Assembly (NCBI RefSeq): GCF_003334765.1
Contig: NZ_QOWT01000001.1
Length of the DNA: 64,000 nucleotides
Direction: 5' to 3' (one strand)
From: Escherichia coli
GTDB taxonomy: Bacteria; Pseudomonadota; Gammaproteobacteria; Enterobacterales; Enterobacteriaceae
Positions 59,152 to 59,174 of the stretch are shown here, one piece after another (position 1 is the stretch's first letter; every line of letters starts with the position of its first letter). Below the pieces are notes generated by a model. The model did no database searches. It worked only from the letters and a program-made list of their open reading frames with translations, and was not told the origin of the DNA. Both the position numbers and the translations under genes were made by a program.

Positions 59152-59174
59152 AATGTTATATTGTAACATATAAC
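59152..59174. promoter_or_regulatory. Zur-box-like palindrome upstream of zinT
   Basis: AATGTTATATTGTAACATATAAC, near-palindromic. Confidence 0.5.

Follow-up and report, generated by a model that had tools for sequence, protein, structure and literature searches.

The Zur-box-like palindrome upstream of Escherichia coli zinT is very probably the known Zur operator, and zinT starts at a downstream TTG codon

Introduction

The control of zinT by Zur is part of textbook metal homeostasis, with zinT as a zinc-scavenging gene and Zur as the zinc-sensing repressor. An operator for zinT is said to have been predicted by Panina in 2003. For the K-12 zinT promoter fragment (PzinT), cooperative binding of two Zur dimers was measured in vitro with an apparent Kd of 0.053e-18 M^2, protection of ~30 bp was described, and zinT was found to be derepressed 984 ± 70-fold in vivo in a zur deletion strain (Gilston 2014, PMC4219657).

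Three further operators and one related family member provide the frame for comparison. The znuABC (znuA/znuC) operator shares the RNNNYRNNRYNNYRNNNY / TGWNAYRWTATAWYRTNWCA architecture with the zinT operator and has been crystallised with two Zur dimers (Gilston 2014); unlike zinT, it serves a divergent promoter pair. Compared with zinT, Zur binding at znuABC is ~150-fold weaker, and repression is ~7-fold as opposed to ~984-fold (Gilston 2014, PMC4219657). In both promoters the box is placed over the -10 region, i.e., at -22 to -3 in znuABC and at -23 to -4 in zinT, according to a secondary statement (Velasco 2018, PMC5916954). The ykgM-ykgO (L31p/L36p) and pliG operators belong to the same four-operator E. 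coli Zur regulon as zinT, but have other target genes, and the pliG operator forms a single-dimer Zur intermediate and is much weaker (Gilston 2014, PMC4219657). The Fur box (GATAATGATAATCATTATC) resembles the zinT Zur box in that a repressor of the same family acts at an AT-rich palindrome by promoter occlusion.

Here, we describe how the zinT locus in a 64,000-nt stretch of E. coli DNA (hereafter, the window) compares with these systems. The window has the same gene as K-12 in the same position, with the same 20-bp operator core, Shine-Dalgarno sequence and TTG start. It differs from the K-12 gel-shift fragment at three single-nucleotide positions, all of them outside the core, and two of these (K-12 ACATTAACT, window ACAATGACT) create an upstream in-frame ATG.

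Results

The zinT locus

BLR(DE3), strain C and further genomes share the 1-kb interval 58400-59400 of the window at 100% identity, and a match to it was found in 5418 of 5426 complete genomes. The genes msrP, msrQ, zinT and yodB follow one another on the minus strand. Mechanical reading of zinT gives an open reading frame (ORF) from 59137 to 58466 (minus strand) with an ATG start and 223 aa, seven residues longer than the annotated protein (Table 1). The product of zinT is a periplasmic metal-binding protein. Over its whole length it belongs to the NCBIfam NF007639 equivalog, with a score of 432.2 bits against a curated cut-off of 300, and profile positions 2–214 align to residues 11–223 of the ATG-extended 223-aa ORF. 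The putative cleavage site of the signal peptide follows the UniProt entry and the structural literature on ZinT. Just downstream of msrQ lies a GC-rich REP-type palindrome, GCCGGATAGGGCGC/GCGCCGCATCCGGC (59309-59374), which scores below threshold against the Rfam REP-derived family naRNA4 (35.8 bits; gathering score 59.5).

Table 1 Coordinates of zinT, its operator and the candidate promoter elements in the window
Feature	Position	Strand	Evidence or remark
zinT coding sequence	58466..59116	-	216 aa + stop; NF007639 equivalog; RefSeq WP_001007789.1
Signal peptide, 23 residues, followed by HGHHSHG	59048..59116	-	Translation
zinT start codon TTG	59114..59116	-	RefSeq CDS boundaries, conservation, NCBIfam alignment
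Shine-Dalgarno sequence GGAGGA	59124..59129	-	7 nt upstream of TTG; GAGG-type motifs at the same place in other genera
ATG of the mechanical ORF	59135..59137	-	Polymorphic, non-conserved, without Shine-Dalgarno sequence; seven codons upstream of TTG
Equivalent of the 47-bp K-12 PzinT gel-shift fragment	59134..59180	-	44/47 identical; Gilston 2014 Table S2, oligo Cy5-zinT-f
Putative transcription start interval	59145..59153	-	Velasco 2018 (PMC5916954) and geometry of the -10 candidates
Zur operator core, 20 bp, two Zur dimers	59149..59168	.	Plus strand TGTAATGTTATATTGTAACA; exact, unique match to TGWNAYRWTATAWYRTNWCA
Best match to the 23-bp gamma-proteobacterial Zur-box consensus	59150..59172	.	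19/23, centre 59161
Three overlapping candidate -10 elements	59153..59168	-	All inside the operator core
Candidate -10 TGtTACAAT, extended -10 type	59168-59160	-	
Candidate -10 TATAAC	59160-59155	-	
Candidate -10 TAACAT	59158-59153	-	
Candidate -35 hexamer TTGCAT	59178..59183	-	Invariant in the Escherichia alignment; 17 nt from TATAAC

Sequence of the Zur operator

The initial annotation had noted a Zur-box-like palindrome at 59152-59174. The string AATGTTATATTGTAACAT is present on the plus strand from 59152, it ends at 59169, however, and the end assigned to it lies 5 nt further on. The string forms an imperfect palindrome: its 6-bp arms, ATGTTA (59153-59158) and TAACAT (59164-59169), are perfect, separated by 5 nt and centred on 59161. 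It is overlapped by a second inverted repeat, the perfect 8-bp pair TGTTATAT/ATATAACA (59154-59161 and 59168-59175).

Its identity as a Zur box is borne out by both published Zur patterns. The structure-derived two-dimer pattern TGWNAYRWTATAWYRTNWCA (skeleton RNNNYRNNRYNNYRNNNY; Gilston 2014, PMC4219657) is matched in 20 of 20 positions at 59149-59168, which is its sole match in the window, and 100 dinucleotide-preserving shuffles gave 0.00 matches, i.e., none is expected by chance. This core is offset by 3–6 nt from the interval first proposed and shares 17 of its 20 bp with it. The older 23-nt consensus GAAATGTTATANTATAACATTTC (GAAATGTTATA-N-TATAACATTTC) has its best match in the window at the same place, with four mismatches, all in outer positions, while the next best match has six. 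The site furthermore lies in the equivalent of the K-12 fragment to which Zur was shown to bind very tightly (PMC4219657, Tables S2, 3).

A weight matrix trained exclusively on the three other E. coli Zur operators, i.e., znuABC, ykgM-ykgO (L31p) and pliG (Gilston 2014 Table S2), also picked out the zinT site, ranking it first in the window with 20.8 bits; the maximum in shuffled sequence had a mean of 10.1 bits (sd 3.3), with a single outlier of 23.5. A register shifted by 5 bp (59154-59173) scored nearly the same, 20.5 bits, and the two registers together form a pentamer run, TGTAA/TGTTA/TATTG/TAACA/TATAA. The shifted register was rejected as the conserved site: positions 59169-59173 vary among the Escherichia sequences, which leaves 59149-59168 as the conserved site. 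We conclude that the sequence is, with little room for doubt, the known and well-characterised Zur operator of the E. coli zinT (yodA) promoter, and that it is nothing new.

Other Zur- and Fur-like sites were seen elsewhere in the window. The second-best match to the 23-nt Zur consensus, at 6622 (six mismatches), was discarded, as it amounts to no more than a half-site that overlaps the probable ATG of an ORF for a TonB-dependent receptor (5700-6668, minus strand; region of interest 6622-6701). The best Fur-consensus matches of the window lie just upstream of this ORF, at 6677-6695 (four mismatches) and at 6683 and 6715 (five each), and suggest that the receptor may be under iron rather than zinc control. 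Further Fur-box-like sequences, with 4/19 mismatches, are found at 46781-46799 and 47952-47976.

Conservation of the operator and its surroundings

Within E. coli, the 201 nt ahead of zinT show unusual variability, with identities of 80–100%. The msrQ-zinT spacer (59090-59290) is far more polymorphic than the 1-kb region as a whole, and 1555 genomes match it at 80–90% identity. An alignment (A1) of 12 Escherichia sequences, comprising the window, K-12, eight further E. coli, one Escherichia sp. and E. albertii, contains three near-invariant islands in this stretch: the -35 region, the operator core, and the Shine-Dalgarno sequence through to the start of the coding sequence. The first of these, CCTAAGAGTTnTTGCATTT (59194-59176), varies at two positions, the TTGCAT hexamer inside it being invariant; the second, TGTTACAATATAACATnACA (59168-59149), is the 20-bp core and is invariant in all 12 sequences except at position 59152; and the block GGAGGA-7 nt-TTG varies at no more than one position, with the Shine-Dalgarno core and the TTG identical in 12/12.

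Across the enterobacteria, approximately 60 of 78 zinT loci have a site that fits the Zur pattern with at most two mismatches, within ~40–110 nt of the gene. No recognisable Zur box was found in the 250 nt upstream of the zinT homologues of Serratia sp. DD3, Proteus and some Morganella (L054-L057, L062, L064, L067, L069, L073, L075 and L078), and these homologues may be regulated differently or lie inside operons. In Serratia sp. DD3, four zinT loci lie on separate contigs, and their match statistics are identical. Short contigs of two metagenome-assembled genomes, one labelled Bacillota and one Bacteroides (L032 and L071), carry a matched ZinT segment that is 100% identical to the query, and these segments are probably E. 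coli contamination of the bins.

E. coli MFDS1022581 (L090, 1-200) has an IS2 insertion ahead of zinT, with the annotated transposase gene ending ~90 nt before the coding sequence. The insertion removes the upstream spacer with its predicted promoter; homology in the alignment resumes just upstream of the -35 block, and the Zur-controlled core promoter is kept.

Candidate promoter elements

Three overlapping -10 candidates and one -35 candidate can be assigned to zinT (Table 1). The -35 hexamer TTGCAT is weak (3/6), and TATAAC, the -10 candidate at the best spacing, does not have the usual final T, which makes the promoter assignment uncertain. In the Salmonella locus the elements are arranged likewise, as TTGAAG-17-TATAAC, and the gap between the -35 hexamer and the palindrome is again 8 nt. 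Placing the zinT box at -23 to -4 (PMC5916954) would put +1 at 59145 and leave a 29-nt leader before the TTG. Since every candidate -10 lies inside the Zur core, the operator would overlap the promoter whichever of them is used, in agreement with the overlap that the initial annotation had proposed. Our reading of the -10 hexamer, of where transcription starts and of the mechanism of occlusion is inferred.

Neither zinT/yodA nor the expected coordinates appear in the available parts of the supplements of two genome-wide transcription-start studies, Mendoza-Vargas 2009 and the 2016 Cappable-seq study; standard media leave zinT repressed. A literature search yielded no further discussion of a zinT start site, of ChIP-exo or of the start codon. 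A generic promoter scan missed the promoter under Zur control, its sole call being TTGTCA-18-CATAAT (59250-59279, minus strand), ~100 nt upstream of the Zur box. This sequence corresponds to the 'constitutive' RpoD promoter of the yedZ-zinT spacer (Shimada 2014, PMC3946193), and if that promoter is active, Zur would have to roadblock its transcripts. Searches of the zinT leader RNA found neither an RNA family nor a stable structure; the 5' leader is unstructured.

The start codon of zinT

zinT starts at the accepted TTG (59116) and not at the ATG (59137) of the mechanical ORF. A downstream near-cognate start had been deduced from the closeness of the palindrome to the ATG, given as ~15 nt, and 14 nt do separate AATGTTATATTGTAACAT from the ATG (59137-59135, minus strand). 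An operator near an ATG does not per se exclude that ATG, however, since the putative transcription start (~59145-59153) is still upstream of it. The deduction itself was right, and we base it on the RefSeq starts, the Shine-Dalgarno sequence, conservation and upstream stop codons, and not on operator proximity.

RefSeq annotates a 651-nt coding sequence from the TTG in 10/10 E. coli records examined, records with the ATG allele included. The TTG is preceded by GGAGGA; nothing resembling a Shine-Dalgarno sequence was found ahead of the ATG. In the Escherichia alignment, 8/12 sequences have another triplet in place of the ATG: five strains, K-12 among them, have TTA, two sequences have ATA and E. 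albertii has ACA. Neither the E. albertii nor the Salmonella loci examined have this ATG. At least 2283 of 5426 genomes (~42%, O157:H7 included) carry the window's ATG allele in its exact 34-nt form, which is the commonest single allele in E. coli, and at least 1386 carry the K-12 TTA allele. In-frame stop codons occur 18 nt upstream of the TTG in the Salmonella locus and 12 nt upstream in the Atlantibacter locus. The NCBIfam ZinT profile begins at residue 10–11 of the 223-aa ORF, and the N-terminal region of the signal peptide carries two basic and no acidic residues when read from the TTG, versus two basic and two acidic residues when read from the ATG.

Loci with the aligned TTG after a GAGG-type motif are found in Escherichia, Salmonella, Atlantibacter, Serratia, Enterobacter, Yokenella, Lelliottia and elsewhere. 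A heuristic based on the Shine-Dalgarno sequence gives TTG as the start in 30 of 78 orthologous loci, and more distant genera use ATG. Retention of the rare TTG in zinT by many enterobacterial genera suggests that a weak start is selected for.

Discussion

Binding of Zur and ~984-fold repression by it were shown by others on the near-identical K-12 sequence and would be expected to hold for the window DNA. For the latter, our own observations are that the sequence fits the Zur patterns and is conserved, that the start-codon evidence favours the TTG and that the gene is zinT. With sufficient zinc, two dimers of zinc-loaded Zur would occupy 59149-59168 from opposite faces of the DNA. The core would contain the sigma-70 -10 region, with the likely -35 hexamer TTGCAT (59183-59178) just upstream, and bound Zur would exclude RNA polymerase from the promoter and thereby silence zinT. 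When zinc is scarce, Zur would come off the DNA and transcription would begin ~29–37 nt upstream of the coding sequence. Ribosomes would then use GGAGGA (59129-59124) and initiate at the TTG. The resulting precursor would have 216 aa and a signal peptide that is normal in being positively charged. The ATG at 59137, a common SNP allele, would lie within the 5' untranslated region and not be a start.

Could the site be something other than a Zur operator? Zur and Fur form one protein family with related AT-rich palindromic operators, and fur is reported to affect yodA expression, both of which count in favour of reading the site as a Fur box and the gene as iron-regulated. The sequence does not fit, however: the best match to the 19-bp Fur consensus in 59120-59200 has eight mismatches, compared with four at the Fur-box-like sites elsewhere in the window, and with 8/19 mismatches this reading was ruled out and is in our judgement scarcely credible. 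We consider it equally far-fetched that the palindrome is AT-rich promoter sequence or a chance inverted repeat and no repressor site. The region is AT-rich, and any Zur box does resemble an extended -10 element in its left half (TGTTATAAT-like), but none of the 100 shuffles produced an exact match to the pattern, the 20-bp core coincides precisely with a conserved block (one varying position in the Escherichia alignment) within a variable spacer, and many genera have such a site ahead of zinT. In addition, Zur binding and 984-fold repression have been published for the K-12 equivalent (Gilston 2014, PMC4219657).

The alternative concerning the gene is that the ATG at 59137 serves as a genuine start, sole or additional, in strains with the ATG allele, giving a precursor with the seven-residue extension MTLEETV. 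This ATG is in frame and open through to zinT, lies downstream of the putative transcription start and belongs to a frequent E. coli allele, carried by at least 2283 genomes. It would be left with a leader of only ~8–16 nt that lacks a Shine-Dalgarno sequence, however, and other Escherichia have TTA, ATA or ACA in its place, while the Salmonella and Atlantibacter loci have stop codons ahead of their TTG. With the extension, the signal peptide would gain two glutamates in its N-terminal region; the ZinT family profile does not reach the extension, and RefSeq leaves the stretch unannotated even in ATG-allele genomes. We therefore regard initiation at this ATG as unlikely, and retain the TTG as the start of zinT and the palindrome as its Zur operator.

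There is a slim chance that the zinT operator holds two overlapping Zur registers 5 bp apart, so that Zur could slide from one to the other or a third dimer could be loaded, and, separately, that the SNP-created ATG acts as a minor in-frame start that modulates ZinT export. If true, the overlapping registers would help to explain the ~150-fold tighter binding of Zur at PzinT compared with znuC.

The zinT promoter offers a clean case of an operator that contains its own -10 element. The analysis adds little biology, and its practical value lies in annotation, with the operator, the Shine-Dalgarno sequence and cross-species conservation all favouring the TTG. In the many E. coli genomes that carry the ATG allele, choosing the longest ORF places the start of zinT seven codons too far upstream, inside the 5' untranslated region.
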